Origin: a virus
UHGV virus genome: UHGV-0214148
DNA: 64,000 nucleotides
Strand: one strand, 5' to 3'
The stretch's first letter is position 1. Every line of letters starts with the position of its first letter. Below, one piece after another: positions 616-63,508 of the stretch. The translations under genes and the position numbers were made by a program. Below the pieces are notes generated by a model. The model was not told the DNA's origin, made no database searches, and worked only from the letters and a program-made list of their open reading frames with translations.

Positions 616-640
616 CACCTAAGTAAAATATATCTAAGAT
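616..640. promoter_or_regulatory. AT-rich promoter-like motif CACCTAAGTAAAATATATCTAAGAT
   Basis: Near-identical copies at 59101 and 63484; lies between a terminator hairpin and the start of gene 173..562. Orientation unresolved. Confidence 0.4.
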
Positions 641-668
641 AATTTTCAATAGGGTTAAAATAAAGGTG

Positions 669-697
669 GGCTAGTCTATTCGATGAATAGACTAGCC
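669..697 (-). terminator. stem-loop terminator (GGCTAGTCTA / TAGACTAGCC)
   Basis: 10-bp perfect stem; A-rich tract on plus side gives a U-run on the minus transcript; downstream of gene 706..1257. Confidence 0.55.
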
Positions 698-705
698 GAA
701 TGGTT

Positions 706-1257
706 TTACTGCACGCACAAAATCTGACCTGAGTATTCGAAGGGATTTTCTGCGAATGTTCTGAGTTGTCGGCAAATGGCGTCAACGTCAGGCTCATCCG
801 TCCGCGTATAGATCGCGGTCCCGTTCTTTAACACCCACTCACGGCAATTCCGGCCATAGTCATCCACTAACAATCTCCCCTTATCAGCGTAAGTCGCTTT
901 TTCTGCAGAGCTTGTGGTTACGATAACTTTGTGACCAGGCACACCAAAGTGTTTCTCGAAGAATAATTTTTTACACTCAACAACACGGTCGTGATCGAAA
1001 TGGTCTTCCGAACCCGACGTTAATATCGCCCAGCATTCCCCCAGACTTTCTACCGTTTCGAGGATTTTTGCAGCCTCGGGTATAGGGTCTAGTTTATAGA
1101 AAAGATCCGGGTCCTTTAAATACATTTCCCGGACCAGTGCACGGCGGTGCAATTCCGGCATTCCATGAAATTCTTGTATGGACATTCCTTGAAAGTGGTG
1201 GGTCAACACGTATTTACGCCAACTCGCGAACACGCCGTCACTATCTAAATTGAACAT
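706..1257 (-). CDS. HAD-superfamily 5'(3')-deoxyribonucleotidase-like protein
   Basis: 183-aa ORF; N-terminal DSDGV (HAD motif I, DxDx[TV]); size and layout resemble the NT5C-type nucleotidase family. Motif-level only. Confidence 0.5.
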   Translation of the reverse strand: MFNLDSDGVFASWRKYVLTHHFQGMSIQEFHGMPELHRRALVREMYLKDPDLFYKLDPIPEAAKILETVESLGECWAILTSGSEDHFDHDRVVECKKLFFEKHFGVPGHKVIVTTSSAEKATYADKGRLLVDDYGRNCREWVLKNGTAIYTRTDEPDVDAICRQLRTFAENPFEYSGQILCVQ

Positions 1258-1323
1258 TTTTGATTATCCTTTTTGTAGAAGTTCCTCCGACACAATAACG
1301 GTAGAAATTGTAAAATAAAAAAA

Positions 1324-1623
1324 TTAGGACTGCTTAATCGAAAGAATGAACCGAAACGGTTCAGTTAACAAGAGGTAAGTACGTGTAAAGTCGATTTCGG
1401 TACCGGCTTGACGCACATCGCAATAAAATTTCGCGATATCTTGTTGTGAAATACCTGCGACAATGTTGTTGACTTTACGTTTGGTGTCAAAACGTTCAGC
1501 GAGTATCGAAGAAAGCACTTCCTTTCCAGCATGCTCTTGAACGGCATAGATTGTTAGTGCTTTCAATTCCTCAGGCGTTAAAGTTTGCAAAGTCGGAGGT
1601 ATGGCAATGTTAACCACTTTCAT
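1324..1623 (-). CDS. hypothetical protein
   Basis: 99-aa ORF in minus-strand gene train. Confidence 0.45.
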   Translation of the reverse strand: MKVVNIAIPPTLQTLTPEELKALTIYAVQEHAGKEVLSSILAERFDTKRKVNNIVAGISQQDIAKFYCDVRQAGTEIDFTRTYLLLTEPFRFILSIKQS

Positions 1624-1672
1624 GCTTCCCTCACAATCGACAAATTCGGGTTGCAGACCATGAACTGGGCGA

Positions 1673-2311
1673 TTATGGAGTTACAGTGTATTCGTTTAAC
1701 GCAGCGTCAAAAATACCCCGAGAGATTTCTTTTGCATCAGAAATCGTAATCTGAGGTTCCCGTTCACTACACGCTACAGTAAGCTCGTAGAATGAACCAC
1801 CCTTTAATAGCTGGTTAGCATTCAAACGAACGTCTTGGTTAAGCGCTACTGCTAACGTGTGAGTGTATCCGTTGTTTGCCAGTCGAACTAAACGCAGTTC
1901 ACCGACCATACTGGGTTTAATTTCCCAGTTCGATAAGCGGTGAGGAACAATCCACACTTCATTAGCGCGGTAGGGTTCAGCCGACAGTTCTATCGAGGGC
2001 TGGACAACATCACGTTCGTCGAACCCATACAGATAAAAACGTGGCACAGCGGTTGTGGTTTCCGCAGGTGTAAAGTAGCGACGGACACCACGCAGGCAAC
2101 GTTCTAAATCGACAGAGCAGCAAATACGGGGTACCGTTTTGTCTTCGTCTCTGTAAACGCTATAAGGAATCCGAGGTGTGAAAACCGAAATCTTTCGATC
2201 GCTGATATGCAACGGGGCGCTATCTAACTTTTTCAAAGAAACTTTCTTTGCGGTGCGCGGCAGTTGTTGCTCTAACCACTTCACCAACGAAGGTTCAATA
2301 GTATCAGCCAT
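1673..2311 (-). CDS. hypothetical protein
   Basis: 212-aa ORF; stop immediately followed by start of the next downstream gene. Confidence 0.55.
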   Translation of the reverse strand: MADTIEPSLVKWLEQQLPRTAKKVSLKKLDSAPLHISDRKISVFTPRIPYSVYRDEDKTVPRICCSVDLERCLRGVRRYFTPAETTTAVPRFYLYGFDERDVVQPSIELSAEPYRANEVWIVPHRLSNWEIKPSMVGELRLVRLANNGYTHTLAVALNQDVRLNANQLLKGGSFYELTVACSEREPQITISDAKEISRGIFDAALNEYTVTP

Positions 2312-5691: not shown

Positions 5692-8600
5692 TTATTTAAG
5701 TGTCGCGGGTAAATCAGGCACAGCTTCCCCATCGAGTATACGCCCGATGAGAATCCCGGCTTGTTCACCTACAGCATTCGCGGTACCGATACGTTGGATT
5801 GAACCTACGATACGCGCATCGACGGAATCACGACCGAACAACACGTCCAGGTCATCACCATCCTCTGTTTTGTTATCCCCGTACATGACTTCTTGTACGG
5901 TGGTTTTTAGCTGGTTAGCAATAACCATCTTATCCGCAGCGGCCATCTCAACGTCGTGTGTAATAAAGAATCGAACACAAAGTGAGTTAAAGGCCAAGGG
6001 TACACCTTCGACACGGTAGTCGCCGTTTACACTACCTGAAACCGGATCACCGCGTCCGACTGCCAGTGCGGCTTTACGACGAATTCTGTCGTATTTACGC
6101 ACCAGCTCAGCAAGACTTGGCGTCATGTCTTCGGTTTCACCGTGATACACCACTTCGATTTTATCCACGATACCACGTACCCCTGCACGAGGTGCGTACG
6201 AACTTAAACTTTGCAACGTTGCGGCTGCTTCCTGACTAAAGGCACTCATATCGCCCGTCAAGTCGTCAGTAAACGTGCATAGGATTGTATCGACGTCTAC
6301 GTGGTCGCCCTCATTCACGATTTCCAAAAGCATCTGGTTGCTGTTAATCGTCACTTCTTTCAGCTTTGTTACCTGCCCCACCATTTTCTTCGCGAACCGT
6401 TCAGAAATTGCGTTGGAGTCTTCGATAACTTCTTCAGCTTCTAATAAAGCAACGGTGGCCAGCACCCCGTTTTTCCAGGAAACCTGAGTAGGATCGTAAA
6501 TATCAGGTTCAAAGTGTTGCTCGTTGTACGTAATCACTGCCCCGGCCGGGAGCTTGTCACCGGCTTTCCAGCGTGTTACCAAGGTGTGCGGATAGAAGGT
6601 ACCTTCGTGGGGGCCGAACCAGCGCCCTAGAGGAAAGGCTTCTTTACTTCCATCTTCGTACGTAATTTCAATGTGGTCTTTCGACAGACCAGTTATCTTA
6701 CCTGCTTTATCAATAACGCGTGCATGTTTCACCGAAGTACGGTGAGCGACGAATTTCTCCTGTTCAGTACGATACGGGGTTGTGGTTGCCCCATTACAAC
6801 TGGTGGCAGAACCTAACTGAATCCCAACGAAGTTCTGACGTTTTGCATCGTCCATTAACGTATCGGGTACTAACCCGTCAATAAACGAAAGAGTATCGCT
6901 TGGTTTCGGGGTTTTCTCTTCACGCTTAAACGTGGTACCGTCAACGGTGTCAAAACGTGGGTTATTGGTGACGAAAGCAGTAATCCCTACGTCGCCGTTA
7001 TCTACGGTGTTACCCGAGACTATCCCGATATCACTGGGTTGGAACTCACGTGTGTGGTAGACCATCGTTTTACGATTACGACCACCTGTACCCCCCATCG
7101 TAATAACGTCTTTTTCTTTAATTGACTGGATAGGGTTAGCGCCTGGTGCCAAAAGTACCGACGGGTCGGAGTTAATCGCACCCCAAACCATATCTTGCGT
7201 CAGTTCGAACTTACGGTTACTGCCCGGTGCGTTATTGTAGTTACGCATCGCTCTGACCATCGCAGTATAGATGTGGTAGGCAATCCTCTGATTTCCTAAG
7301 AACATCATTTCGTCGCCGTTAATCTCTGGTAAAGAGTGGTCAGTTTGTAACAGTTCGTTAGAACGTTCCAGCAAGCCAATAAAGGTTTCCGGCTCACCCA
7401 TTTTCCTGAGGATACGTGCGTGCATGTCGTCAACAAACGCGGACCGCATCTGTTTCAGCTCGTTGATGTACCGTGGCGTTAGGCCATCTGCTTCACGTAA
7501 TAAGTTCAGGTAAATGTCTTCGCGGTCTGCTTCTGATTCGGTATAAGCAACCAGGTGTTTGAGATAGCGATCCAAACCATGCAGAATCATCCTCTGCTGA
7601 TCGTTATCGCAAGTAACTAAAAGTTTACAGTCTTGTAGTCGAATAATACTGTCGTAGGCATTCTTATCAACACGTTGCCCTGCAGGAACCAACTCGTATT
7701 GGATACCGAAATGTTTCAACATTCCCTGGAGTCCAAGATAGAACGAGAAGATAAAACCAAGCGACAAAGATTTACCCATCAAAGACAGCTCGGTCATTTC
7801 GCGAGGCACTTTCTGGTTATTAAAGCCCAGTACCTCTGCGATAGTTCCCACCGGTTCAACTTTGTTTCCGTTCACACCGTAAAGCATGGATTTGTCATCC
7901 ATTGCCAGGATTGTTTCACTACGCGGACGTTTCGCCACTGGTAAAAGTTTGGCAGCATCGGCGTCTCTGAGTTGCTCGTCGTTAAAGAAGTTAACGGCTT
8001 CTTTGTAGTCGAAGTTCCACATATAGCCATTCGCATTAAAGCTGGCAATACGACGTGCAATCTCCGTATACTGACGAGGCAGATGTTGCGTAGGATCGAA
8101 CACATTTGCTAAACGTGCATCGGTGACTTCGGTGTTTGTCGGGTCAACGGCGCGTGTGATAATCGCGTTGGTTAACCAACGACCGTAATCGTTCGCGACC
8201 TTATCACTACGACGGACAAAGTTTTTACCGTAAGCGGTAGTCAGTGCGACAGTATCCGGTGCAACCTTACGAATCGGTAAGTCCACACGTTGGCGACGCA
8301 TGGTGTATTCGACACCATTAGCGACCCAAGTACCGTCCTCGGTCAAGCCTGGGATAGAGAAGCGAACGGTTGTTGGCTCACCGCCGACTGGCTGAACACG
8401 TAAAGTGTGATGCTCGATAGTTCCTGTAACAGAAACTTCTTTTTCCACCGTGTGGTTGTGAACCGCCAGACCCAAACGTTGTGAACTGGCGACCGCCGCC
8501 AGTACGTCTTTGGTCATCATGGTCTGGTTGTATTGTTTCACCATCTGGTCGGTGACGTTCTCTGCCCACCCTTCATCGGTAACAAGCCGCTGAACTTTTT

Positions 8601-9858
8601 TCGGTTCGGCTTTAACGACAATATCTTTCTCGTGAACAGTCAGTGCTTCCCCGTAGGTTTCTTTCGGGTTATACGGGTTAGGTAGCTGAACGAAACGTTT
8701 AGACGATTCTGACAGGAACTGATATGCTTTAGAACTTAAGCGGCCCGCTTCAGCTAAGCGTTGTGCTTCCTGTTTAATAATCTCGTCATGTGGAATGACT
8801 TTCTCGACGACGATGGTCGTCGGTTTGACGTCTTCCTTCGGTTCTTCAATAACAACGTCTTCTTTTTCATCGAAGGTGTTATCGGACTCCACCACAGCGT
8901 CATTAACAACATCGTCATCGTCGACAACATCAACGGTTTCTTCTTCGACGTCTTTAAGGAAAACACGCTCGTCGCCTTCAGGCGTTAGGAATTCAGCTTC
9001 GTACGCGTTAGACGGTGCTTGTGTCATTACACGCACCAGCGTACGGTAGAACATCCTGGCCATTTGGTCATCACTTAAACGACCGCCGGACGACTTACGC
9101 ATTTTCTCTACAACACCCATGTTCATGGACGTAAAGCCCGTGTTGTGGGTGAAGATAAAGTTCATTCGTGACAGCTGAGTTAAATCCATTCCCGAGAATA
9201 AGGAATCGGATTGTTTTCCATAAGCCCAAGCAAACAACTCCAATAACCACAGCAAGTTAAAGTCCTGGAACTTCTCAATCTTGCTCTTAACGCGGTCGTT
9301 ATAGGTTGTTTGAAACTTCTGGAACGAAGGTAGAGTCGAACCCAGCTCAATAACGAAATAGTTCTGACGCATGTATTCTTGCGTGTCGTATTTGAACTGG
9401 TTAATCATCAACAGTTGGATGTTACGCAGTCTATCGTACCAGGCTAACTGGGTATCAGGATAGTAGTAGTGCGACAACATCGGTGTGTAGTTCTCGACCA
9501 GGAGAACTTTTAAGTCTTTGCGAACCAGATCGTCTGAGGTAAGACGACGCATTGGTCGGTTTGCACGGTGGTAAGCAAAGATAGCACGTTCTTGACCCTG
9601 AACAGGTTTGTTGCGCGGATGACCGCTAATACCGTCTTCCGGTAATTTAAAGTGGTGACGAACCTGTGCAGGTTTTTCTAACGGTTGAATAATCTCGAGT
9701 GTTGCAGGTGGCGCTAATACCACCTGGTCGAGATCAATGACATGGAGTACAGAACCACGTGGTATCTGTAGCTTCTCGAGCGGGATAATCCTCGGATTAC
9801 CAAACTCGTCAGTTTTACGCACCGAGAAGCGTTGGTTAAACTGTTTAATGAGCAGCAT
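5692..9858 (-). CDS. multisubunit RNA polymerase beta-subunit-like protein (N-terminal/central portion)
   Basis: 1388-aa ORF. [19 protein letters not shown] resembles bacterial RpoB [34 protein letters not shown] resembles FLEHDDANRALMGANM (bacterial sequences quoted from memory). Contains an acidic insertion ([12 protein letters not shown]). Adjacent to the beta-prime-like gene. Confidence 0.6.
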   Translation of the reverse strand: [1388 protein letters not shown]

Positions 9859-9867: not shown

Positions 9868-11487
9868 TTATGGGTTCTTTAATAACGCTTGCGTTGCACG
9901 TTTAATCACGTTGTTGATAGGATTGATTTTAAAGTTCCCATCAGAATCGAACCAGTAGTTTTTCGAGTGTATCCAATTTCGGTTTTCCTCGAGCGCTTCC
10001 TGGGACATAGGCGCGTTAAACGACCCGGTATCGCCGTCGTAGTCACCTCCTAAGCCACCTAGACGTGAGGGGTGTGGTGCCATCGACTCAACGAAGGTAG
10101 GAACCGACCGGTCAGGGTAGCTGATAGCCCCTCGGGGTTTTTCAGTTTCCCAGTCATCTTCCAGTTCTTTTAAGTATAAAGATGACGTGGTGGTCTCCAA
10201 TCTTATGGTCGATGAATACGTCGAGCCTCGGCCTGTAACGGGATAACGTGTAACGAAACCGAAATAATCGTTCCAAAGTTCGTAGCCCGACAAATAAAGC
10301 AATTCGACGAGTGTCATACCGTGGACGAATTTTCGGTCAAACGTTTTAGGAAGTTCTTCAATATCGTAGAACACCTTAAAATGTTTGGTGTCTTGGTAAA
10401 CCAACGCAATGTAGTGGGTGTCATCCAACATAATCGGCTGATGGCGAAGCTCGCGAGCTTCCATTCGGTTGATTAAGGATTCAATCCCGTCGTCGGTGGT
10501 AAAGGTGTCGTATACACGACCACCTACTTCCAAGAATTCACGTTTAAGGGTTTTGGTGTTTACGCCGTAAAGGTTGCCATCACCAGCACGGATGTTACCG
10601 AGGTAACGTTCACGTATTTGGTACTGCGCAACAGGGAGTAATGCTTTTAAACCCTGGTATAAACCAATTTTGGTGTCGGTAGGACGAATAGCGTCTTCAC
10701 GACCCATGCACTTAGACCCCGTCGAGAACGAGGACAGTACGTTACGTGTCCCGTTCATTAATTTACGAGACGTAACCTTACGACGTTGGAAACCCCCTTT
10801 ACCGTCTTGGATGTTAAAGAAATACATCCAGATATCGTTGAAGGTTTGTTGCAGCTTCCAGCGCACGGGGTTAGTTAGTTCAACACGGGTTGCTCGGTCA
10901 GGGATCGCCCTGGCGAGTGATACCAACCGACGATACATCCCGCCGATTTCTTCTTCCTGTTCTCTACCATCTTGTCGAATTACTAAATCGCGTAAACCCG
11001 CGGGTAACACGAGAACGTATCGACTAAGACTAACGGGACGGAATTTCAAAAAGAAATCCACGGTTTCGTCACGTTGTAGGGACTCGTTACGCTTAGGTTT
11101 TAAATCGTTATAGTGACTGAGGAAGAAGTTAAAACCGGTATCTGCGCCTGGGTCTCCCGGCAAGGCCGGTTCGAAATCTTTTTCTTTTTCGCTCCAGGTT
11201 GCGTAGCGTTTTCCAGAACAAATTTCTTCGTAGAGTTGTTTGAGTTGGAATAACGCCAAACACACCGTCGGCGAAATGATATCGAGTTTAATATCGATAT
11301 AAGAGAAAGTAGAGTCTCGCGCTTCACTCCCCGTGAGTCCAAATATCTCTGTAGAGTAAAGACCTTCGGGGTGAAAGTTTTTTGTTAACCCCTGGAAAGT
11401 ATCCGTGGTCGTGACGGGTCGTAATCGCGACACAAGAGACTTGTTTACATTGAGCAGATAAAAGTCAACCCAATTAAGTTTATTCAC
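9868..11487 (-). CDS. multisubunit RNA polymerase beta-prime-subunit-like protein (N-terminal portion with catalytic DxDGD)
   Basis: 539-aa ORF, GTG start with AGGAG SD. GGDYDGDTGSFNAPMSQEA resembles NADFDGDQMAVHVPLTLEA; KGGFQRRKVTSRKLMNGTRNV resembles RpoC [21 protein letters not shown] (from memory). Confidence 0.65.
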   Translation of the reverse strand: MNKLNWVDFYLLNVNKSLVSRLRPVTTTDTFQGLTKNFHPEGLYSTEIFGLTGSEARDSTFSYIDIKLDIISPTVCLALFQLKQLYEEICSGKRYATWSEKEKDFEPALPGDPGADTGFNFFLSHYNDLKPKRNESLQRDETVDFFLKFRPVSLSRYVLVLPAGLRDLVIRQDGREQEEEIGGMYRRLVSLARAIPDRATRVELTNPVRWKLQQTFNDIWMYFFNIQDGKGGFQRRKVTSRKLMNGTRNVLSSFSTGSKCMGREDAIRPTDTKIGLYQGLKALLPVAQYQIRERYLGNIRAGDGNLYGVNTKTLKREFLEVGGRVYDTFTTDDGIESLINRMEARELRHQPIMLDDTHYIALVYQDTKHFKVFYDIEELPKTFDRKFVHGMTLVELLYLSGYELWNDYFGFVTRYPVTGRGSTYSSTIRLETTTSSLYLKELEDDWETEKPRGAISYPDRSVPTFVESMAPHPSRLGGLGGDYDGDTGSFNAPMSQEALEENRNWIHSKNYWFDSDGNFKINPINNVIKRATQALLKNP

Positions 11488-14500: not shown

Positions 14501-17500
14501 AGCTGTGACCTTACCGAAGAAACTTCTGGGTTTCATTTCGCCTAAAGCGGCTTCGTTGTTCGAGAAAGCACGCGAGTGGTTAAATGAGGTTCCAGAGGGC
14601 GCAGAGAAAACCCGTTTACAAAGCATGATTTCCCGCGTAACGGGGATGCCAGCTCGTCTGTGGAACAATGCAAAACGTGGGTTTGAGAAGCTCAAAGAGT
14701 TGGCTTCTGATAATCCGTTGACACGTTGGTGGCAGAACCGTAAGGAAGGGGGTTCTGGTGGTGGGTTTAGTGTGTTCTCGTGGTCGAATGGCCGCAAAAC
14801 TAACCACATCTTAATCCGTATCTACAAACTCCTTAACCGGAGATTGCCAGGTGAACCTGAAGATGACACCTGGACAGAACAGATGGAGCGGAATACAGGG
14901 GCCAGTTCAGTTAAAGGATTATTCCAACGTGCTAAGGACATACGCGATGGGTTCCGTGAACATTTTCAAGGGTTCCGGGATTGGCGTGGTCGGATGCGTG
15001 ACAGAATGTCCCGTTACCGCAGTGCGGTAGGTGGTCGTCTTTCTCGTTGGGGTGGTGCAGCACGTGATTGGTTTGACCGTTTCCGTGGCCGTGCAAGCGA
15101 TATGGTCGATACCTTCCGTGATCCGCGTTACGACATTGGAACACGTTATCGAATGGAGAGTCGTTTAGCAGGACGCGATGACGACGTTGCTGAGTTTTAT
15201 CGTCAACACATCTACGCAAGAGGCAAGGTGTCTAAAACACGTATCATCGATGCGGCAAAAGAAGACTTGGATACCGTAACGGATAGCGCTGGACGTGTGA
15301 TTAATAAAGGGAAACAGAAAGCCCGTAGCGTTGGGTCAGCTTTACTGGAACGCCTGAACCGAATGGTTAATCTTCAGGAAATGTCGTGGTTTAATACCAT
15401 GCGCGATTCTGCGGAAAAAGCAGGTGCTTCGGATGGTTTGTTAAGAACCATGTTCAGTAAGTTCGGTCAACGTAACAAGCCACCTGCCAGTGATGAAAAA
15501 CGCGATTACTTCCAGTTCTTCCGACGCCGTCGTCGCTCTAAGGAAGAGGAAAAGGCTAAGAAAGAGGCTGAGAAGAAAGGCGGTAAACGTGGGGTAATGG
15601 ATTTCCTTAAAGGACTGCCGTTGGTAGGGCCGATTGTGAGTATTTTAGGCACAGTGGGTTCAATCTTAGGTAAAGTCGCAAAATGGGGAATCTTCAAGCC
15701 TGTTGGGTTTGCAGGTAAAGCGTTGTGGAACGTTGGTAAATTTGCCGTAACCCGTTTGGCTGTCCCTGCGGTGAGTGCTGTCGCGACGGCAGCATCTGCA
15801 GTGGTAACTGCGGTTGGCTGGCCGATTATTGGTTTGGTCGCTGCAGGCGCTGCGCTGTCTTGGTTTGCGTATAAAACGGCAACCCGTGTGAATGCTCAGT
15901 ATCTGGATAACATGCGATTGGCACAGTACGGATTTAGAGATCACGATGAGTGGTCTTCCGACGATGGCGCAAAAGCACGTTATTTAGAAGACAACTTGAA
16001 ACCGTACATCTCTTATACAGAGAATGGTCAAGCACAGTTGCGTGGTTTGTCCGGTGACGACGTGAAGAAACTGGCCGAAGGGTTTGGTACTAACGTAGAA
16101 GACAAAGGCGAAATGCTGGCGTTTACCGCGTTTATGTTACAACGTTTTGTGCCGATCTATTTACGTTGGATTACGGCACTGAAATCCATGGATAATGATA
16201 TCGCGTTAGCAGATGTCGGTAATCCTGCGAAAGTGTCGAAAGCAGACATGCTTACCATCTTTAACAAAATGAAGATGACAAAAGATGCACCTGCTTTTAA
16301 ATCACTGACAGACCCCCGTAAAGTTAACCAAGGTTGGTTCTCTAAAGCGTGGGATTTCGTGACCTTCACACCGGCAGAATTTTTGTCAGGTGAAGAAGTT
16401 GTCGAAGCACAAGATCGTGTTTTCCGGTCTATCAACATGCGTCGCGATGATAAGCGTAAGGAAACAACTGGGGCCGGTGGTGTGCCTGAAGGACATAAAG
16501 TTGCTTCTGTGGCAGAATCTTCGCAGGTACTCGCGAAGAACGATACCGAGCGTAACGAAACTGTTGCTAAAGCTGAGGGTTGGGAAGACGGTACTGAACA
16601 GGTTCAAATTCAAGTTGACTGGAGAGCATTACCTGAGAAGAAAGATTTGGACGCGATGGAATCCGTCCGTTGGAAATCTTACGGTGTGAAATCTGTTAAT
16701 GAGACAACACGTACCCTCTTTAGGTTGCTTGAGAAAGAAGTGTTGAAAGACACGGATATCAAAAATTGCATTTATAAGGGCGATTGGAAGAAAGCAATTT
16801 CTGCGATTGCGCCTGATGCAATTGGCGGTCCAAAAGAGGAACGTTACAAGAACTGGTTCTATAATCGATTCTTACCTGTATTCATGACCTACGTTTATGG
16901 TGTAAAACGTTACGTGCCTCATGCCGATCCGTTGGATTTGAAACTCACAGGGGGGTTCCTCTATGAGCTGGCACTGATGATGCGTGGTGCTTACAACATG
17001 AAAGGGGGTATCCGACAGTCTGTGTGGGAAATCGCATTTAACCCGTTAGGAGGCGATGCGAATACCGATGCAGGTTCAGTGAGGGAAGAATTAGCAACGC
17101 TGAAAGAGTTGTCTAAAGAACCCGATCTGGCTGTAAGGAATATGCTCAAAGAAACACCGAGCACGCCTAAGCGTATGACATGGAAATCACCAGCGACAAA
17201 CTCCAGTGTCCATCAGACGAATGAAGATAGCAAAGAGCGTTATAAGGGAATTAACAGCTACGGCGAAGCTTCAAACGATGGCTACTTACCGAAAGGTGGT
17301 CAGTCCTACGGTACGCCAGGTGACTTATCACAAGTTGTCGGCGATATGGGTATAGGGAACTATGCGAAGTATTCCACTGGACAATCGGGTATCACCCTCG
17401 GTGAGTTACAAGACGGTGATTACAAGTCGTTAGTGACTAAATACCCAAGGGAAATGCTCGGTAAACCGATGCAGTCAAATACTGAAGCCATCAAGTCATT

Positions 17501-40951: not shown

Positions 40952-40973
40952 TTTAATAACTCCAATGGTGTTA

Positions 40974-40999: not shown

Positions 41000-41656
41000 A
41001 TTTTTAGCGAAAAAAGGATCGACTATAAACTCCTTCACCTGTGAGTCATAACCCGAATGTATTTGATCGCTACTGAGCAAATACCCGTCTAAATCGTGTG
41101 GAAGAATCCAAGAATCCCCCTGTTTAAAAATACCATAATCTGTTGTTCCAGAGGAAAAAACGATTTCCTCTGGAGAGGAATAGATGTGGCGTAAGGCAAG
41201 ATCGGACGGCTTTAACACGATTAATCGAACGGGATGTTGACTGACTGCCTCTTTAATAAACTGTTCACGATTAAAGCAAATTATTTTTTCGGGGTAAGTT
41301 TCGAATTCAGCCCATGTCCGCCTGATAACTAATTTGGAAATCTTTCTCAATTCTTCAGAATGCTCTGCGTAGCCGATACACTCCTTGCGTACTTCATGAT
41401 TTTCTACCGATGCTGCGAATTTTTGGAATAGGTGTTGTTGGAAAAAGCCGTTCTCCGGGATATCACAACCTGCGTTGTATAGTGCAATGATCTCCCACAA
41501 CAACGAAAGAGAAAACACAAATGCTAACTTTTCCACCACTTCCCAATCTTCGGAGTAAGGGGCTTTAAAGCCCCAATACTGCCGTGCGTTATACATAAAG
41601 TGAGTTTGTAAAAACCGAGGGGCTTTTGACAAGACCTCACTATAAACGATCAGCAT
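40988..41656 (-). CDS. hypothetical protein
   Basis: 222-aa ORF. Confidence 0.55.
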   Translation of the reverse strand: MLIVYSEVLSKAPRFLQTHFMYNARQYWGFKAPYSEDWEVVEKLAFVFSLSLLWEIIALYNAGCDIPENGFFQQHLFQKFAASVENHEVRKECIGYAEHSEELRKISKLVIRRTWAEFETYPEKIICFNREQFIKEAVSQHPVRLIVLKPSDLALRHIYSSPEEIVFSSGTTDYGIFKQGDSWILPHDLDGYLLSSDQIHSGYDSQVKEFIVDPFFAKNILR

Positions 41657-49682: not shown

Positions 49683-50404
49683 AGGGTAACTCCTCTATTG
49701 ATTGGAAAACTCGTGTTTATCGTATCCCAAATTCTACTAACTTCCGCCAGTTGAATCTGACGTGGTGTTTTCTTCGCAAACGCAAGCTGACGTGGGGCCG
49801 AGCCCACAACAACAGGCACATCGATTTTCGCGCTATAGAACGCGGCGTCTTTCATAAAGCCTGCCATTTCTCGTTGTGCTGCTCGAGATTTGCTTTTGAT
49901 TCGCGTGTGAGCGCCACTTTCACCCCAGTGGTAAGCTAACGCAACTTCAGCCATGGTGGGCTTGCGTTTGAGTCGTTTGGTTAACCCCTTCTCAAGATGT
50001 TTAACATACGCAGTAGCCAGCAAAACAGCGTTACGCGGATTATACAAATCGGCATTCTGACTAAGACCTAATTCTTTTCCATAAAGCTTTAGCAGATTAC
50101 GCTTGGTACTTGGAAGCATCTGTACCAGGCTGTGTGCTCGTGAGCTTTTGTTGTAAGCCTTGGGATCAAAACGCGATTCACGATAAATCAGTGTAATCAT
50201 CAGCTTGGGATCAACGCCCTGCTTTCGTGAGATTTCCACAATTAACGGGCTGACTTTTTCGAACCGATGTTGGATTTGTGCAAACTCTCGCTGATGCTTA
50301 GAATGTGGCGTTGACGTTGACGCCTGTGCGTTAAACGCGAAAAGTGTTACCAGTAAAAGAAAGAAGATACGAAACATTTTGTTTCTCCAGTTGGATTTAT
50401 ACAT
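49679..50404 (-). CDS. secreted lytic transglycosylase (SLT domain)
   Basis: 241-aa ORF; signal peptide MFRIFFLLLVTLFAFNAQAS; LIYRESRFDPKAYN...SLVQMLPST matches family-1 lytic transglycosylase motifs. Start may be the internal Met (MFRIF). Confidence 0.7.
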   Translation of the reverse strand: MYKSNWRNKMFRIFFLLLVTLFAFNAQASTSTPHSKHQREFAQIQHRFEKVSPLIVEISRKQGVDPKLMITLIYRESRFDPKAYNKSSRAHSLVQMLPSTKRNLLKLYGKELGLSQNADLYNPRNAVLLATAYVKHLEKGLTKRLKRKPTMAEVALAYHWGESGAHTRIKSKSRAAQREMAGFMKDAAFYSAKIDVPVVVGSAPRQLAFAKKTPRQIQLAEVSRIWDTINTSFPINRGVTL

Positions 50405-50462
50405 TTCCGTATTCCGTAAGACGAAATGACGGCGCGGACAGCTAATACTCCTTTGTTGTGTG

Positions 50463-50488
50463 CCCTAATGATAATATCTATTTAAAAG
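50463..50488. promoter_or_regulatory. AT-rich promoter-like motif CCCTAATGATAATATCTATTTAAAAG
   Basis: Same core; upstream of the secreted transglycosylase gene, overlapping the stop of the macro-domain gene. Confidence 0.35.
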
Positions 50489-51038
50489 AGTTTGGAATTA
50501 ATGACTCTGCTTCTTGGTACAGCTTATCAGGTAAGTATAACGTGTAGCGCTGCCTCCTCGGTTCAAGTTTTTTGTAAAGCCACAAAAAGATTTCTTGTCT
50601 TTCCCAGGAATCTAACCACCCATTTGCCATTCCCAACGGAGGGATAGCAACGCTGGTATCCAGATCCTCAACACAGTCTGCTAATGCGGTAATGCCCGCA
50701 GTAACATAAGAAACCTGGGATTTTAAACGCCAATGTGTTTTCGTGGGGAGCAAGATACACTTTTCGTCAGAGTAAACGTAAACGCTTCCAATCTTAATTT
50801 CGTCTTCACGACACCGCTTACGATAATCCTGATAAAGGTTGGGGTAGCGTTCACGACACGCGAGTGCAATACCGCGACCCATTGCTCCTACGCAGTTAAT
50901 GGTAACGACTTTATAGTCTTCGGGCGCATTAAAAAGATCGTTACCAATTTCAGATTCTTTACGTACCGTTAACATAACGAAACGCCCGGAGTTGATGTGT
51001 AGTATTAAAACGTGTACCGCCGATTGATAGCTCGACAA
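50478..51038 (-). CDS. macro-domain (ADP-ribose hydrolase-like) protein
   Basis: 186-aa ORF; VVTINCVGAMGRGIALACRERYP ... LLPTKTHW ... VAIPPLGMANGWLDSW follows the pattern remembered for TARG1/DarG-type macro domains. Confidence 0.55.
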   Translation of the reverse strand: MSSYQSAVHVLILHINSGRFVMLTVRKESEIGNDLFNAPEDYKVVTINCVGAMGRGIALACRERYPNLYQDYRKRCREDEIKIGSVYVYSDEKCILLPTKTHWRLKSQVSYVTAGITALADCVEDLDTSVAIPPLGMANGWLDSWERQEIFLWLYKKLEPRRQRYTLYLPDKLYQEAESLIPNSFK

Positions 51039-57756: not shown

Positions 57757-58149
57757 TTATTCGGCAGGACGATTTAAGGTAACGCGTCCGATTAATTCAG
57801 CGTTGTGAAAGAAGTCCACAGCGGTATAGTTACCAACTGATAGCGGATGGATACTAACTGACATTACTTTTGGTTGTTCGCAGGCGATATCCGTCAGGCG
57901 TTGGTAGACTTGTGCACGAGTGTCAGCAATGAGTAATCCCGTACACGTTTCACCACGCACTAAACGATAAACTTGCAGTTTACCGAAACTGCGCATTAAC
58001 GTAGGCGTCTCATCCGGGTTGATAATCGGTGACTCAGGAGCCGGTTCGTAATAGCGGACATCCGAATCACCGAAAGCATAAGTGCCAGTAATTCCGACCG
58101 CACAGAAAACAATGATAGTATAAAGTATAGTTCTGATATTCATTTTCAC
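57757..58149 (-). CDS. small secreted protein
   Basis: 130-aa ORF; signal peptide MKMNIRTILYTIIVFCAVGITGTYA. Confidence 0.55.
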   Translation of the reverse strand: MKMNIRTILYTIIVFCAVGITGTYAFGDSDVRYYEPAPESPIINPDETPTLMRSFGKLQVYRLVRGETCTGLLIADTRAQVYQRLTDIACEQPKVMSVSIHPLSVGNYTAVDFFHNAELIGRVTLNRPAE

Positions 58150-58171
58150 GCACTCTAAAAAAGATTAATAC

Positions 58172-58633
58172 TTATTTGTTAGGACGGGTGTGTCCACAGT
58201 TCTGGAAGAAAGTTTCAGATAAACGATCGCCTTCTACGGTAAAGTTAGCGGCATCGTTACCATTGATACTCACACTGAAAGTTTTGGCATTACCGATAGC
58301 AATAACGAAAGCAACCCAAGCGTGTTCTGCCTTGTCGCTACCGTCCACGGTAGGGATGTTATAGGTTTTGCCGTTTACGACAATATCCATCGTGTTATCT
58401 TCAGCGTTAGTTGCACCTACGGGTTCCCCGTAATACCAAACCATGCGACCGTAAAATTTGCGATTCACAGTTTCTGTGTCACAGTTGATAGACAGTCCGT
58501 TTCCGGCGGTGTCTTCGATTTCGTAAACTGCCTGGCCAGGGTTTTGTATTTGTTCCCAACTATTGATTGCAGCGTATGCGCTATTGAGGCCGAAAGTTAA
58601 AATGGTTATTAAGAATGTGATAAAGGTTTTCAT
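58172..58633 (-). CDS. small secreted protein
   Basis: 153-aa ORF; signal peptide MKTFITFLITILTFGLNSAYA. Confidence 0.55.
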   Translation of the reverse strand: MKTFITFLITILTFGLNSAYAAINSWEQIQNPGQAVYEIEDTAGNGLSINCDTETVNRKFYGRMVWYYGEPVGATNAEDNTMDIVVNGKTYNIPTVDGSDKAEHAWVAFVIAIGNAKTFSVSINGNDAANFTVEGDRLSETFFQNCGHTRPNK

Positions 58634-58679
58634 TGAAATGCTCCTTCGAGTTATGGGGAAGCTCCCACAAATTATGAAA

Positions 58680-59051
58680 TTAAATAACTGTGTTGGGTAA
58701 TGCTTTAATCTGTGTATAACTATCTCCGATACCTCTTATCATTTCCAGACGCTCTTCTGTAGAAAGGCTTTGGTTAATGTCTTTGTCAAGATTGAACAGT
58801 GTCAAGAGTTTTGCAATTGCAACCGTCAAGTTGTCGGACAGCTCGTTGTTTTTACGCCATTCTTCGTTACGGAAAATAGAGATAAGGTCTTTCGCCTGGC
58901 CTTCAGCGTGCGGTTTGGCTAACTGCGCGTCACGCTGTTCGATAAGGTATGCTTCGTTAGTAAGTAAACGTTTCAGGTTTTCTGGGTTAGTGGCAGCGCG
59001 AGTAACGATCATTAATACAACAAACGGGTCTTTAAATAATTCGTTTTTCAT
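58680..59051 (-). CDS. hypothetical protein; paralog of 173..562
   Basis: 123-aa ORF; N-terminal 15 residues identical to ORF 173..562; homologous upstream region. Confidence 0.7.
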   Translation of the reverse strand: MKNELFKDPFVVLMIVTRAATNPENLKRLLTNEAYLIEQRDAQLAKPHAEGQAKDLISIFRNEEWRKNNELSDNLTVAIAKLLTLFNLDKDINQSLSTEERLEMIRGIGDSYTQIKALPNTVI

Positions 59052-59100
59052 CTTTAGTTCTCCTAAAATGGTTTTCGTTAAGTGAGAGCTTTTGTACTCT

Positions 59101-59125
59101 CACCTAAGTAATATATATCTGAAAT
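59101..59125. promoter_or_regulatory. AT-rich promoter-like motif CACCTAAGTAATATATATCTGAAAT
   Basis: Between terminator hairpin 59158..59177 and the start of gene 58680..59051; preceded by imperfect inverted repeat AGTGAGAG/CTCTCACC. Confidence 0.4.
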
Positions 59126-59157
59126 TATTTTTAATATTAACGAACAAAAAAATAAAA

Positions 59158-59177
59158 GGTGGGGGTAAACCCCCACC
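59158..59177 (-). terminator. stem-loop terminator (GGTGGGGG / CCCCCACC)
   Basis: 8-bp GC stem, TAAA loop, preceded on plus by AAAAAAATAAAA; directly upstream (minus sense) of motif 59101..59125. Confidence 0.6.
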
Positions 59178-59181
59178 GATG

Positions 59182-59760
59182 TTATACATCGAACCGATAC
59201 TGCCGGGAGTTAATGAGGAATTCGGTATTCAGCTCAATCCATTCGAGTAAATCACCCAACGGTAATCGGTTTGGGTTTTCTAACTCAATAGACGCTACCG
59301 GATAAGAGTTTACTAATTCCGTAATTGTATCAATACCCTCTTGCGTTCCATCGTCTTCTAAGGTGATTGTAAACGGCATATCGGTACGATCCGCATTAGG
59401 ATTGTACAAACTGACTTTTGTTGCTTGGACAAACGCAGACAGGTCGTCACGTATAATGCGTGTATCAGGCGATAGAACTACCCAGAGATGCTGCCCTGGC
59501 TGGAGTTTACGTTTTGCGTAGTTTAAGAAAGGACTTGCCATCAAGTTTTCCAAACCACAACAGATGCTACGTAACTGTATTCCGCGCGGATCTCGGTAAT
59601 CCACATCGAAAATTCCCACAGGTTCATTCGCTGCCTGTTTTATCAGAAAGGCCAATACCGTGTCCGCTCTTTCTGGTAAGGAAAGCTCTATTCCCTCAAG
59701 CTCCCCATCGACGAGATTTTCTAACCAAACGTCTTTTCGCATTTCTATTAATCGGTACAC
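59182..59760 (-). CDS. hypothetical protein
   Basis: 192-aa ORF. Confidence 0.55.
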   Translation of the reverse strand: MYRLIEMRKDVWLENLVDGELEGIELSLPERADTVLAFLIKQAANEPVGIFDVDYRDPRGIQLRSICCGLENLMASPFLNYAKRKLQPGQHLWVVLSPDTRIIRDDLSAFVQATKVSLYNPNADRTDMPFTITLEDDGTQEGIDTITELVNSYPVASIELENPNRLPLGDLLEWIELNTEFLINSRQYRFDV

Positions 59761-59772
59761 GGTTCCACCTCA

Positions 59773-60546
59773 CTAATAATTAAGTTTTACATCGGCAATA
59801 AACAGCAATTGTTTACCATGTTGCTGCACTTCTTTCCAACCTAGTTTCATAGCAGCGTCAACAACATCTAACATGCTGTAACGGGACATCAAAGATTCTG
59901 ATTTTGTTCCTGACATTAAGTAAAGTGGCTCATTAGGGCTACGGTCACGTGCGTCAGGAAGTTCCCGAGAGACTGCTGATCCTTCGGGTACGGTAACAAC
60001 ATGAATCACGGTAAATGGTCTCTTGTGCGTCAGATAGATACGAAACCCAACGTGTTCAGATTCATGAAAGACTTTCTTCACAACCACATCTTTTAGTGTC
60101 GTCTGAACATCAGCCCCAGGTAATATCGTGGTTTCACGTGAAACGAAACAACGGCTATTTTCAATCGTGGAGAAATAATTACGTATCGGCAAACTAGCGT
60201 TATGATCGCGCAGTTTTTTGCTCAGTAGATCGAAGTTCAGTTCTTTAACCTTTTCTAGCCATTCTTTGGCTTGTTGAATGTAATAACTACCAACAGCGCG
60301 ATAAGTTAATACCTTACCTGTGCTCACTTGCCAGAGCTTGATGCTTAGTGAATTTGGCTTATAGCGACGATACTCACCACGCGTATAGTTGATGCGCTCG
60401 TAACGCTCTACACCGTCAACGGGTGCAGTTTCGACCGATTGTAATTGCAGCGTACGATCTAATCTATCGGCAAATAGTAGTGATGTTAGCGGGCCTTCGA
60501 TCATATACGGTTCGGTTTTAAAGATATCGTCTAAATGGACTTTCAT
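59773..60546 (-). CDS. hypothetical protein, GW/QLLF C-terminal motif family (member 1)
   Basis: 257-aa ORF ending ...AAMKLGWKEVQQHGKQLLFIADVKLNY. Confidence 0.6.
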   Translation of the reverse strand: MKVHLDDIFKTEPYMIEGPLTSLLFADRLDRTLQLQSVETAPVDGVERYERINYTRGEYRRYKPNSLSIKLWQVSTGKVLTYRAVGSYYIQQAKEWLEKVKELNFDLLSKKLRDHNASLPIRNYFSTIENSRCFVSRETTILPGADVQTTLKDVVVKKVFHESEHVGFRIYLTHKRPFTVIHVVTVPEGSAVSRELPDARDRSPNEPLYLMSGTKSESLMSRYSMLDVVDAAMKLGWKEVQQHGKQLLFIADVKLNY

Positions 60547-60568
60547 TTCTATTTCCTTCTTAACAAAA

Positions 60569-60587
60569 GCCGCGACTAAAGCGCGGC
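60569..60587 (-). terminator. stem-loop (GCCGCG / CGCGGC) between paralog family members
   Basis: 6-bp GC stem with A-rich plus-side flank. Confidence 0.4.
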
Positions 60588-60613
60588 AGTTAGAGAAAGT
60601 GTATTTTCACTTA

Positions 60614-61765
60614 TTAGAGGTCAGCAACAAACAACAGCTGACTGCCGTATTTTTGCACGTCAGCCCAACCGTAGTCTTTCCCGATTATAGGTAGATGTAA
60701 AATATCCAGCTTCTCGTCTTTCGCTTTTAGTTTCGCCATTAACGCATTGGACTCCTCAGCACTGAGGAGTAATGCTGGCTCTTTTTCAGTACGTCCTTCT
60801 GCGGTTGGGAAGAAATTGTAATAGCTGCGAGTAGGTAAATCGACAGAAAAACTACGATTGCCTATTCTGGCGATGAACGCAACTCCTTCACAGTTAGCAT
60901 CTACACTGCACGACCATCCCGCCTCCGTTAAAAGACCTTTTAACAGACACCACACTTTAAGTTGGTTCTTAGAAACTGTACGGTAAATAGCAAGATGTTC
61001 AGGAAGTAAATGTACGCCCATAACCACGTTTTCAGATTTCTCGTCAAGCAACTCTGGATGCTGTATCGGGAACAATAATTCAGTGATACCCACGTTATCA
61101 ATTTTGTTAACAAAATCAGTTAATTCATCTTTTAAGGTAGACACTTGATTTTCTCCTTTGTCTTCAATAATCAGGTGGGGTTCGCCGCTAATTAAAATGT
61201 GGTAAACGAGATCGTCAGTAGAACGGTAAGTGAGCTTGATTGCTTTATCACTTAATATTTCGTAGCGGAAGAAACTTTCGTACCAACTTGAGCCGAAATC
61301 GTTTTGTGTAAGCTCCTGCTCAACTTTGATGGTTTTTGCTTCAAAGCCGATTAACTCGCTTAATAACGCGAGTTCTTGTTTAGTTAAAATAGCTACACCG
61401 TGAAAGGGCACTTGTTCAAGCTGAAAACATAACTTAGTGACTTCACCATTTGGGAAGACCTTAAACATAATCTTCCGGTTGCTACTCTTTTCCCTAACAA
61501 CGAGTTTACGGTAATTTAGTCCACAATTTGTGTAAGCCGCGAACTGGTAACCTTCAATTTCTTCATCGGAAGTACAGACATCGACAGGCGCGATAATCTC
61601 ATCGTATTCACTAAGTACACAGCAGCCCAATTTATAACCAAACAACGTATGTTGTAAAAAATAGTCGAGGGTTAAGCTTGGTAGTGGCCAAGCCCGATTA
61701 TAGCATCTGTCCATCAGTTCTTTTAGGTACTTGGCATGTCTTGGTTTAGAAATAATATTTCGCAT
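60614..61765 (-). CDS. hypothetical protein, GW/QLLF C-terminal motif family (member 2)
   Basis: 383-aa ORF ending ...GKDYGWADVQKYGSQLLFVADL; FFPTAEGRTEKEPALLLSAEESNALMAKLKA parallels member 3. Confidence 0.6.
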   Translation of the reverse strand: MRNIISKPRHAKYLKELMDRCYNRAWPLPSLTLDYFLQHTLFGYKLGCCVLSEYDEIIAPVDVCTSDEEIEGYQFAAYTNCGLNYRKLVVREKSSNRKIMFKVFPNGEVTKLCFQLEQVPFHGVAILTKQELALLSELIGFEAKTIKVEQELTQNDFGSSWYESFFRYEILSDKAIKLTYRSTDDLVYHILISGEPHLIIEDKGENQVSTLKDELTDFVNKIDNVGITELLFPIQHPELLDEKSENVVMGVHLLPEHLAIYRTVSKNQLKVWCLLKGLLTEAGWSCSVDANCEGVAFIARIGNRSFSVDLPTRSYYNFFPTAEGRTEKEPALLLSAEESNALMAKLKAKDEKLDILHLPIIGKDYGWADVQKYGSQLLFVADL

Positions 61766-61796
61766 TTTTACTCTCCTTTAGGGGTTTTTTCGTTAC

Positions 61797-62351
61797 TTAA
61801 GCAGGGCAAGCTAAGAACAACAACTGCTGACCGATTTTACGTACGGTATACCAACCGTGGGCTTTAGCGACCGCGATCAACGTTTCCCAGTCATCAACAT
61901 CACATTGCTCGTTCCGAAGTTTTGTAAAGAGTGCTTCGGCTTCGTCTTGGTTTAATAACTTACCTGGATTATCAGGGGTGGTGCCAGAAGGGGTTGGAAA
62001 GAAATCGTATTGACACGCTAAGAGAAAATCAACCAGATACTTGGTGTTCTCTTTATAAACCAGCGTGGAAGTCTTCCCTTCGTGGAAGAAGCTGCCTGTT
62101 TTCCAAACGCTATCTTTCAGTAAGCTCTGAAGGTAATCTGTAAAGCCCGTTCTAAATGGGATATGCGTTTTACGCGTGATGTTGCGACGCAGCGGGGTTT
62201 CCTCTACAGCTTGTACACTTACCCCTACTATCATCGCACCTGGCTGGATAATGGTATTGGTCAGTACGGTATAAGGACGGACAAAGAAATGTTCGCCTAC
62301 GCCTTTTTCAAGGGTTTGGATAATTTCATTTTTCAGTTCAGTTTGAAACAT
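61797..62351 (-). CDS. hypothetical protein, GW/QLLF C-terminal motif family (member 3)
   Basis: 184-aa ORF ending ...AKAHGWYTVRKIGQQLLFLACPA; FFPTPSGTTPDNPGKLLNQDEAEALFTKLRN block. Confidence 0.6.
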   Translation of the reverse strand: MFQTELKNEIIQTLEKGVGEHFFVRPYTVLTNTIIQPGAMIVGVSVQAVEETPLRRNITRKTHIPFRTGFTDYLQSLLKDSVWKTGSFFHEGKTSTLVYKENTKYLVDFLLACQYDFFPTPSGTTPDNPGKLLNQDEAEALFTKLRNEQCDVDDWETLIAVAKAHGWYTVRKIGQQLLFLACPA

Positions 62352-62377
62352 GGTATATTCTCCTTTTAGGTTTTTAC

Positions 62378-63112
62378 TTACGCGGTTTTAATTAGCAGCA
62401 GATAGCCCTTCGTAATCTCAGCACAACTCCACCCTTTTACGGCAGCGACACCACGAAGGTAATTTTCTGTGTGATACTGTAAAAACGGATCGTCTGGATT
62501 AATCTCAACTAGGTGAGTGGCTTTAGAAATCGTTTCCGCCTCTGGGATTTGTTTTGTTAAGCCTGATGCAATCAGTTCAATAACGCGGTATCCCTCTAAC
62601 CAAGAAACATAGATACGTAAACCGTATAACTTACCGTTATCTTTTAAGGGATAAAGACTGATGCCCCGGCCGAGCAACGTTAATTCTACATCAGTGGGAA
62701 GGTTTTCTACATGCTTGATTAACCCTACCCCATGTCTAAACAGTGGGAAGTAAGAGTATAGCGTCAGCATACTGCTTCCTCCAATAAACGTAACATCGGA
62801 AACGGTAGGCGTGCTGGCAATGAGGCGAACATGTTCCGCTACGACTTCAAGTTCGGCGTCACTGATCAATTTATAGAATAAAATGACGCTGGTTTCGGTA
62901 TTAAGAACAAAGAAGAACCGGTTGGCGTGACTGCTTATCGTGTATTCGTCAACCATGCTGTCGATAACGTCACTGTCTGGATAATCTTCGGGTTTAATTG
63001 TTTCAGCAGAGACTAACTTAGCAGGTTGGGATTGCCCTATTAGTTCATTAACCACCGTAGAAGAAAGTTCTAAACTGGTGTTAGTAAAGATATCGTCTAA
63101 TAATTCACTCAT
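62378..63112 (-). CDS. hypothetical protein, probable divergent member of the GW/QLLF family
   Basis: 244-aa ORF ending ...AAVKGWSCAEITKGYLLLIKTA (weaker match). Confidence 0.5.
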   Translation of the reverse strand: MSELLDDIFTNTSLELSSTVVNELIGQSQPAKLVSAETIKPEDYPDSDVIDSMVDEYTISSHANRFFFVLNTETSVILFYKLISDAELEVVAEHVRLIASTPTVSDVTFIGGSSMLTLYSYFPLFRHGVGLIKHVENLPTDVELTLLGRGISLYPLKDNGKLYGLRIYVSWLEGYRVIELIASGLTKQIPEAETISKATHLVEINPDDPFLQYHTENYLRGVAAVKGWSCAEITKGYLLLIKTA

Positions 63113-63453
63113 GATTTACTCGCTAATCTCAATAAAGGGGAGTCTATTATTATGGATTGTAAAAGAGGTATAAGGAAGTCACTACGTTCCTCTGGGAAGA
63201 GTATGTCGGTATACTACGTATACCTCCGCTATTTATATCCGTATACATAATGCCCCCTACCCCCTACCGGTATCCCGAGTAGCAGAATAAAGGGGCAGAC
63301 TGTAAAATTTTAGTACCTGTTATCGGAAGGTACTAAATGGAGTGTAGTCTTTAAGCCGTTTGAGCAGCTCATTGAGACTTTCTTTCTTTTTAGTAGACAT
63401 GATCTGTCTCCCCAAATGGTTTAATCAATCCGTTTCGAATGAAACGTGTCCGT

Positions 63454-63480
63454 AGGGGCTGAACTGGCACTTCAGCCCCT
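63454..63480. terminator. stem-loop (AGGGGCTGAA / TTCAGCCCCT) adjacent to promoter-like motif
   Basis: 10-bp perfect stem; flanks are not strongly U-rich in either direction, so function is uncertain. Confidence 0.35.
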
Positions 63481-63483
63481 ATT

Positions 63484-63508
63484 CACTTAAGTAATATATA
63501 TCTGAAAT
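63484..63508. promoter_or_regulatory. AT-rich promoter-like motif CACTTAAGTAATATATATCTGAAAT
   Basis: 24/25 identical to the 59101 copy; directly after hairpin 63454..63480 and about 25 bp upstream of the plus-strand start at 63534. Confidence 0.4.

Follow-up and report, generated by a model that had tools for sequence, protein, structure and literature searches.

The 64,000-nucleotide stretch of virus genome UHGV-0214148 analysed here (the window) contains six copies of an AT-rich motif in short intergenic spaces, which raises the question of what this motif does and in which direction it acts. The first-pass annotation, made from the letters alone, described three near-identical 25-bp copies and three diverged ones, called their orientation ambiguous and suggested, with some hesitation, a likeness to phiKZ-family early promoters. 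According to the results given below, the six elements are, with a probability of about 0.9, early promoters of an SPN3US/phiEaH2-like (phiKZ-related) jumbo phage, all firing leftward on the minus strand, and they are most likely read by a polymerase injected with the phage DNA.

The three 25-bp copies (616–640, 59101–59125, and 63484–63508) match the degenerate pattern of the first-pass annotation with 0 mismatches, compared with 0.00 matches expected from 100 shuffles. The three diverged copies are found as well, with coordinates refined to 31858–31881, 40974–40997, and 50464–50487. All six share the same plus-text orientation, and all lie within a short intergenic gap or at its edge. Regarding the check on chance frequency, i.e., whether the motif is any commoner than base composition predicts, the full-length motif is far above the shuffles. 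The 10-mer proposed as its core, TAATATATCT, fares differently: it is exact in none of the six copies, and at 1 mismatch it is unenriched (5 found versus 3.7 expected). The conserved unit is the longer RTAAWATMTRTYT, with 6 exact matches versus 0.10 expected; this pattern was fitted to the six sites, the unbiased tests being a matrix trained on Erwinia phage phiEaH2 and the published OBP consensus. A looser pattern, C-N6-RTAAWAT, is unenriched (13 found versus 11.4 expected), and a candidate seventh site at 37863 (1 mismatch, ATATCAC core) was rejected as intragenic.

As for orientation, five copies had been placed upstream of minus-strand genes and one upstream of a plus-strand gene; instead, all six have a minus-strand start codon downstream. 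The apparent plus-strand gene arises because the copies at 31858 and 63484 sit in divergent gaps, with plus-strand starts at 31907 and 63534, respectively. Nothing is left of the reported ambiguity: the element is confined to one strand and points the same way as the minus-strand genes. In its minus-strand reading, it has the form ttC-AAAA(-32..-26)-N-tCAGATA(G/T)ATATTA(C/T)-N5-T-G(+1)-A, where +1 denotes the predicted start, and it falls into two classes. Class A (...ATAT(A/T)TTAC-YTAGGT-GAG) comprises the copies at 616, 59101, and 63484, while class B (...AGATATTAT-N6-G), whose leaders in the window are unstructured, comprises those at 31858, 40974, and 50464. The minus-strand alignment is as follows.

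59101 and 63484: TCAGATATATATTAC TTAGGT G
616: TTAGATATATTTTAC TTAGGT G
40974: TTAGATAGATATTAT CCAGGT G
31858: TCAGACAGATATTAT CTACGT G
50464: TTAAATAGATATTAT CATTAG G

The six predicted promoters are listed below with the distance from the conserved G to the start codon and with the score of the phiEaH2-trained matrix.

615–648, minus strand: P1, predicted class A early promoter (−32 to +2); predicted +1 = G616; leader of 54 nucleotides (nt) to ATG 562; matrix score 33.2; exact match to the first-pass pattern.
59100–59133, minus strand: P2, predicted class A early promoter; predicted +1 = G59101; leader of 50 nt to ATG 59051; matrix score 37.3; matches the OBP and 201phi2-1 patterns.
63483–63516, minus strand: P3, predicted class A early promoter in a divergent gap; predicted +1 = G63484; 84 nt to the start codon; matrix score 34.4.
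31857–31890, minus strand: P4, predicted class B early promoter in a divergent gap, quasi-palindromic; predicted +1 = G31858; leader of 23 nt to ATG 31835; matrix score 29.0.
40973–41006, minus strand: P5, predicted class B early promoter; predicted +1 = G40974; leader of 23 nt to ATG 40951; overlaps the 3' end of gene 40988–41656; matrix score 27.9.
50463–50496, minus strand: P6, predicted class B early promoter, the weakest; predicted +1 = G50464; leader of 60 nt to ATG 50404 (transglycosylase gene); overlaps the 3' end of gene 50478–51038; matrix score 21.5.

The matrix was trained on 18 AKATWTTAY sites of phiEaH2 located in gaps directly upstream of plus-strand genes, and its null distribution was obtained from 100 first-order Markov shuffles, whose maxima averaged 8.9 with a single highest value of 20.0. 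Applied to the window, it yields precisely these six sites; each lies on the minus strand, and the scores range from 21.5 to 37.3. Strand bias is also seen in phiEaH2, where AKATWTTAY occurs 22 times on the plus strand and 0 times on the minus strand of the whole genome (18 of the 22 in gaps directly upstream of plus-strand genes), the matrix scan returns 23 plus-strand sites and 1 minus-strand site, and ATATTAT is found 19 times on the plus strand versus 2 for its complement ATAATAT. The most conserved column, with 1.8 bits, is the G located seven bases after TTAY, which is invariant in 6 of 6 window sites and 18 of 18 phiEaH2 sites. Four window sites have positional orthologues in phiEaH2: 616, 31858, 40974, and 50464 correspond to 148038, 116308, 107613, and 98733, respectively, and the last of these, the orthologue of P6, lies upstream of a "putative endolysin". 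When positions 58000–64000 (6 kb) are compared with GenBank phages by megablast, only the P2 promoter region (~60 bp) shows similarity (phiEaH2, Stratton, and Asesino). The class A 22-mer has 50 occurrences in IMG/VR, nearly all in contigs of 107–246 kb and on one strand per contig.

Comparison with published consensuses supports the likeness to phiKZ-family early promoters that had been suspected from TATATTAC on the minus strand. According to Table 2 of PMC7058600, the phiKZ promoter is TATATTAC, that of OBP is BSHAWWWWWTTTYARRYAKATATTATYWWADTG, that of N1M2 is TBYAWWWWWTTTCARRYAKATATTATYWAAGTGWA (31 sites, near-identical to OBP), and that of 201phi2-1 is ...TTTRARR_BTATATTACDWHDGTG (...TATATTACDWHDGTG); as for the OBP element, its location at the start of early operons led to its classification as an early promoter. 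With at most 3 mismatches, the OBP pattern matches five of the six sites in the window (0.04 expected), each on the minus strand, and the 201phi2-1 pattern matches the two strongest sites, 59101 and 63484. The phiKZ core TATATTAC is present in two of the six. In the first 50 kb of phiKZ the same core is found 7 times on the plus strand and 0 times on the minus strand; all of these sites are intergenic, followed by N5-TG and provided with an upstream ttcAAA box, and one lies upstream of the shell-protein gene PHIKZ054.

Among the related systems are OBP, N1M2, and 201phi2-1: their TTTYARRYAKATATTATYWWADTG is almost identical to the window TTTCAGATA(G/T)ATATTA(C/T)YTAnGTG, with an upstream A/T box in both, and the 31 copies in the N1M2 genome head operons. 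OBP and N1M2, however, belong to another phage genus and host group than the SPN3US/phiEaH2-like window, and the TTAC subclass with a structured ~50-nt leader is an SPN3US/phiEaH2-like feature, no such leader being mentioned for them in the part of the source consulted. The phiKZ early promoters (28–32 sites, read by the injected virion RNA polymerase, with experimentally mapped start sites) share the ATATTAC-N5-TG core, the ttcAAA box that precedes it by ~19 nt, the strand bias, and the placement between genes, but have no AGATA extension at −19..−15 and no consistent +1 hairpin at seven sites examined by eye only. As for AR9, its early consensus AAATATATATTAT-(6N)-G+1, mapped by differential RNA sequencing (PMC5312081), has the same register (ATATTAT, six bases, G start), and phiKZ and phiR1-37 likewise start 6 nt after their elements (PMC5312081). 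In AR9, 41 early start sites carry the motif and early transcription needs no new protein synthesis; this phage differs, however, by its uracil-containing genome, Gram-positive host, position outside the nucleus-forming family, and upstream half AAATAT in place of AGATA(G/T). More generally, a review (PMC7598289) reports an AT-rich motif near −10 upstream of early operons in every RNA polymerase-encoding jumbo phage, which proved to be an early promoter wherever transcripts were profiled. A motif analysis of Erwinia phages (PMC6034870) concerns another phage group and another motif and was set aside as not relevant.

Genes for a split beta/beta'-like multisubunit virion RNA polymerase are present in the window.

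9868–11487, minus strand: virion RNA polymerase subunit gene, SPN3US gp240-like, 539 amino acids (aa), beta-like (phrog_2986, E = 7e-234).
5692–9858, minus strand: virion RNA polymerase subunit gene, SPN3US gp241-like, 1388 aa, beta-like (phrog_3148).

The 539-aa open reading frame (ORF) was assigned to gp240 by size and adjacency, and the 1388-aa protein shares 82% identity with the homologue from phiEaH2, Stratton, and Asesino (Erwinia phages) and 76% with SPN3US gp241. In SPN3US, gp240 and gp241 are virion RNA polymerase subunits that are packaged in the virion (PMC5694885). The early motif is found upstream of none of the virion polymerase, tail-fibre, and plus-strand virion genes of the window, and the matrix scan places none upstream of the virion polymerase genes of phiEaH2. 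In the phiKZ/AR9 scheme the injected polymerase makes a second polymerase, which predicts that the motif heads the operon of the phiKZ gp55 homologue, a non-virion polymerase subunit; this is the case in phiEaH2, where the copies at 182317 and 182408 head the operon containing that homologue (29% identity, E = 9e-43).

Taken as a mechanism, a multisubunit virion RNA polymerase, two subunits of which would be encoded at 9868–11487 and 5692–9858, would travel in the capsid and be injected along with the DNA. It would recognise the extended AGATA(G/T)ATATTA(C/T) at about −19 to −7, together with the upstream ttC-AAAA box at about −32 to −26, and would start at the invariant G seven bases past TTAY, i.e., at 616, 59101, 63484, 31858, 40974, and 50464. 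In class A, the promoter would be fused to a ~50-nt leader whose first 18–32 bases form a stem-loop, with terminator insulation at two of the three copies.

Several points weigh against early promoters as the explanation. For this phage, and for the SPN3US-like phages in the literature consulted, the starts, the timing, and the use of the polymerase are predictions from sequence. The phiEaH2 matrix is partly dependent, as 4 of the 6 sites that it recovers in the window are orthologous to training sites; with only ~70% identity in the flanking coding DNA, the conservation of these sites nevertheless carries information. P6, with a score of 21.5, barely exceeds the best shuffle (20.0), and the transglycosylase/endolysin-like gene downstream of it is an unexpected early function. 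The TATTAT core of class B matches the sigma-70 −10 hexamer TATAAT in 5 of 6 positions, including the A and the T of positions 2 and 6, and its spacing to the conserved G is compatible with ordinary host sigma-70 promoters that use TATTAT as the −10 hexamer and start ~7 nt downstream. We nevertheless regard host promoters as very improbable: a −35 element is lacking (at 16–18 bp, the closest TTGACA match averages 2.5/6 over 24 sites versus 2.48 at random positions, and none reaches 4/6), the hexamers of class A, TATTAC and TTTTAC, have C in place of the required final T, and a sigma-70 consensus scan flags none of the three strong sites. Moreover, the top conservation (AGATA at −19..−15, the AAAA box, and TGA at the start) falls where sigma-70 promoters are unconserved, the motif is common to phages of Pseudomonas, Klebsiella, Erwinia, and Salmonella, and transcription in the relatives is independent of the host polymerase (PMC7598289, PMC13282480).

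The last point concerns symmetry. The class B consensus, which reads TCAGATAGATA-T-TATCTAnGTGA in the matrix, is ~80% self-complementary and could fit a dimeric DNA-binding protein, and the divergent-gap site scores on both strands (reverse-strand scores of 17.3 in the window and 20.0 in phiEaH2), as would suit an operator for a dimeric phage regulator, such as an early-gene repressor, acting instead of a polymerase site or alongside it. Such a role seems to us highly unlikely, since a symmetric operator would not show the observed strand bias (22:0 and 23:1 in phiEaH2, 6:0 in the window) or the asymmetric centre revealed by the 19 ATATTAT versus 2 ATAATAT; class A sites are non-palindromic, the conserved G and the start codons lie at fixed distances, and partial self-complementarity is common by chance in AT-rich sequence. 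There is next to no chance, in our estimate, that the near-identical copies are functionless, whether as remnants of the duplication of a gene with its upstream region or as chance matches in AT-rich spacers. The copies at 616 and 59101 do precede paralogues with 55% amino-acid identity; between them, however, the leaders have diverged while the 25-bp motif was kept, unrelated genes follow the other four window copies and the phiEaH2 sites of class A, the shuffle expectation is ~0, and the motif is retained at orthologous positions despite the ~70% identity of the flanking DNA. Duplication of a whole unit as the source of class A similarity was likewise rejected, the first downstream genes being unrelated except for that one paralogue pair.

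Given early promoters, the element class is already known, the window sites are a new instance of it, and knowledge of phiKZ-like transcription is unchanged. The six predicted start points would nevertheless define the early operons and hence provide an early transcription map for an uncharacterised jumbo phage, marking small unknown genes that would be made first and are candidates for host takeover or anti-defence. Compact promoters expected to work independently of the host polymerase could also help to engineer this phage group. If anything here is new and could add to knowledge, it is the structured leader that the strongest promoters carry. Three copies had been described as immediately preceded by a hairpin; the hairpins are real, but on the coding (minus) strand they come after the motif and begin the predicted transcript.

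595–615, minus strand: P1 transcript stem-loop, +2 to +22 (−7.4 kcal/mol, z = −1.4).
59084–59101, minus strand: P2 transcript stem-loop, +1 to +18 (−8.3 kcal/mol, z = −3.3).
63453–63481, minus strand: P3 transcript stem-loop, strong, +4 to +32 (−19.4 kcal/mol, z = −4.6).

Upstream of the promoter, terminator-like hairpins accompany two of the three class A copies of the window.

669–697, minus strand: intrinsic-terminator-like hairpin of the upstream gene 706–1257, directly upstream of P1; 13-bp stem, then CACCTTTATT.
59158–59177, minus strand: intrinsic-terminator-like hairpin and T-run closing the upstream operon, just upstream of P2; 8-bp stem with 7 G-C pairs, then TTTTATTTTT.

The P3 stem-loop is kept with compensatory changes in two relatives of the window, L023 and L036. 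Of 50 unique class A leaders, 52% have an ungapped stem that is 7 bp or longer and begins at +1 to +3, versus 4% of shuffled leaders; pairs change in a compensatory way at +5, +7, and +8, and G-U pairs are frequent. In the matrix-collected sets, stems of at least 6 bp occur in 68% of class A leaders (n = 56, from ~14 jumbo-phage genomes; median length 50 nt, interquartile range 49–52.5) and in 25% of class B leaders (n = 28; median 30 nt). Of 52 leaders, 38 fold more stably as the sense than as the antisense strand, which suggests that the structure acts at the RNA level. Judging by 5'-terminal stem-loops in general, it may act in the RNA, for instance by protecting the 5' end. An intrinsic attenuator is unlikely, because the leader stems are AT-rich, with 1–3 G-C pairs, and a T-run of at least 4 is present in only 14 of 47. 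Class A leaders often contain TCGAC...TTTAACC...AAGGAG. We take the class A leader to resemble the T7 gene 10 leader.

A more far-reaching interpretation, which we put forward tentatively and hold to be rather less probable than its opposite, is that class A constitutes a distinct immediate-early cassette of SPN3US/phiEaH2-like phages, consisting of an upstream terminator, a TTAC promoter, a +1 stem-loop kept by compensatory changes, and a fixed ~50-nt leader. The stem-loop might then keep the first mRNAs safe from 5'-end-dependent decay, or it might label them for handling or for export from the early infection vesicle, and the cassette might be mobile between unrelated small early genes; in the same proposal, the P4 site (31857–31890) would be bidirectional. 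A limited literature search on 5' hairpins of jumbo-phage early mRNAs returned nothing relevant, and no description of the class A cassette was found in the literature searched. A parallel, also for the mobility suggested here, is the promoter-early stem-loop (PeSL) cassette of T4-type phages, reportedly described by Arbiol et al. in 2010. In both cases a terminator hairpin is followed by an early promoter, small early genes of unknown function are flanked, and near-identical cassettes precede unrelated genes; PeSL promoters, however, are of the sigma-70 type, whereas the window promoter is of the virion-polymerase type and has a second hairpin downstream of +1. Phage N4 also has an injected virion RNA polymerase that reads early promoters associated with a hairpin. 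The N4 enzyme, in contrast, is a single-subunit polymerase recognising a DNA hairpin upstream of the start, and no upstream DNA hairpin of this type accompanies the window sites, whose hairpins lie downstream of the conserved element and begin at +1 to +4.

The genes that follow the class A promoters are small.

173–562, minus strand: first gene after P1, small protein of unknown function (phrog_27024).
58680–59051, minus strand: first gene after P2, phrog_27024 paralogue.
63320–63400, minus strand: 26-codon ORF (MSTKKKESLNELLKRLKDYTPFSTFR), first ORF downstream of P3, with protein-level similarity in relative L036.

The first two genes, each with its own class A promoter and upstream terminator, are the paralogues mentioned above and are candidates for very early, highly expressed proteins. 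In L023, a relative with 95–98% identity, the start of the 26-codon ORF is lost through a 102-bp deletion (window 63341–63442). The plus-strand gene beside P3, starting at 63534, is phrog_3216, a baseplate assembly protein, and the plus strand at P3 has no matrix score above 8.

Regarding P4, the site forms a near-palindrome, TCAGACAGATA-T-TATCTACGTGA, and its phiEaH2 orthologue at 116308 is the sole reverse-strand matrix match in that genome. P4 might also serve the divergent gene 31907–32371, although the reverse reading breaks one invariant core position. In phiEaH2 (JX316028.1), an annotated coding sequence with a TTG start (115984–116877) spans the divergent promoter gap; comparison with the window indicates that this annotation is probably over-extended and gives a minus ORF at 15806–16276 and a plus ORF from ATG 16354 (coordinates of the phiEaH2 piece L004). 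The P6 leader (50404–50464) and the corresponding phiEaH2 segment (98748–98836) share a conserved AAAGGAG ~11 nt past the predicted start, as well as GCTGTCCGCGCCGT, likewise conserved. In this leader, a frame of 14 codons with no initial ATG would stop at a TAA overlapping the ATG of the transglycosylase gene, and the frame or the conserved stretches could be an upstream ORF or a leader structure.

As for the identity of the window, it is collinear, in inverted orientation, with ~84–150 kb of phiEaH2 and also encodes a 2388-aa tail-fibre/transglycosylase as well as SbcC-like, UvsX-like, and RNase H-like proteins. Its closest DNA relatives are uncultivated IMG/VR contigs with 94–97% identity (UViG_3300029126_000001, 225 kb, and UViG_3300045988_113438), while GenBank phage genomes show only protein-level similarity, ~82% for the RNA polymerase subunit. 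The source probably represents a species or genus, close to Erskinevirus and Seoulvirus, that has yet to be described. No tRNA was found in the window, and no Rfam family was detected at the gathering threshold over its whole length or at E ≤ 1 around 63000–63520.

Two further sequence features deserve mention. A conserved non-coding element by the baseplate gene is found in three phage lineages, i.e., the window (~63130–63290, minus strand), SPN3US (1600–1700 of the piece L056), and phiEaH2 (33880–33990 of the piece L003). It reads GGGGG-N3/4-GGGGG ... TAG(A/C)CGGAGGT-hairpin-ACCGACAT, and it has no GenBank-phage blastn match, no Rfam match, no tRNA, and an unremarkable fold (z = −1.05). Its hairpin covaries (ATCC/GGAT, GAC/GTC, and ATAC/GTAT), and the element is ~95% identical to L036, compared with ~80% for the flanks. 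In phiEaH2, unannotated and very AT-rich repeats of TCTTTAGATATTAT-like units occupy ~165,100–165,250, where they may form an origin or a repeat array, and gave a spurious core match.

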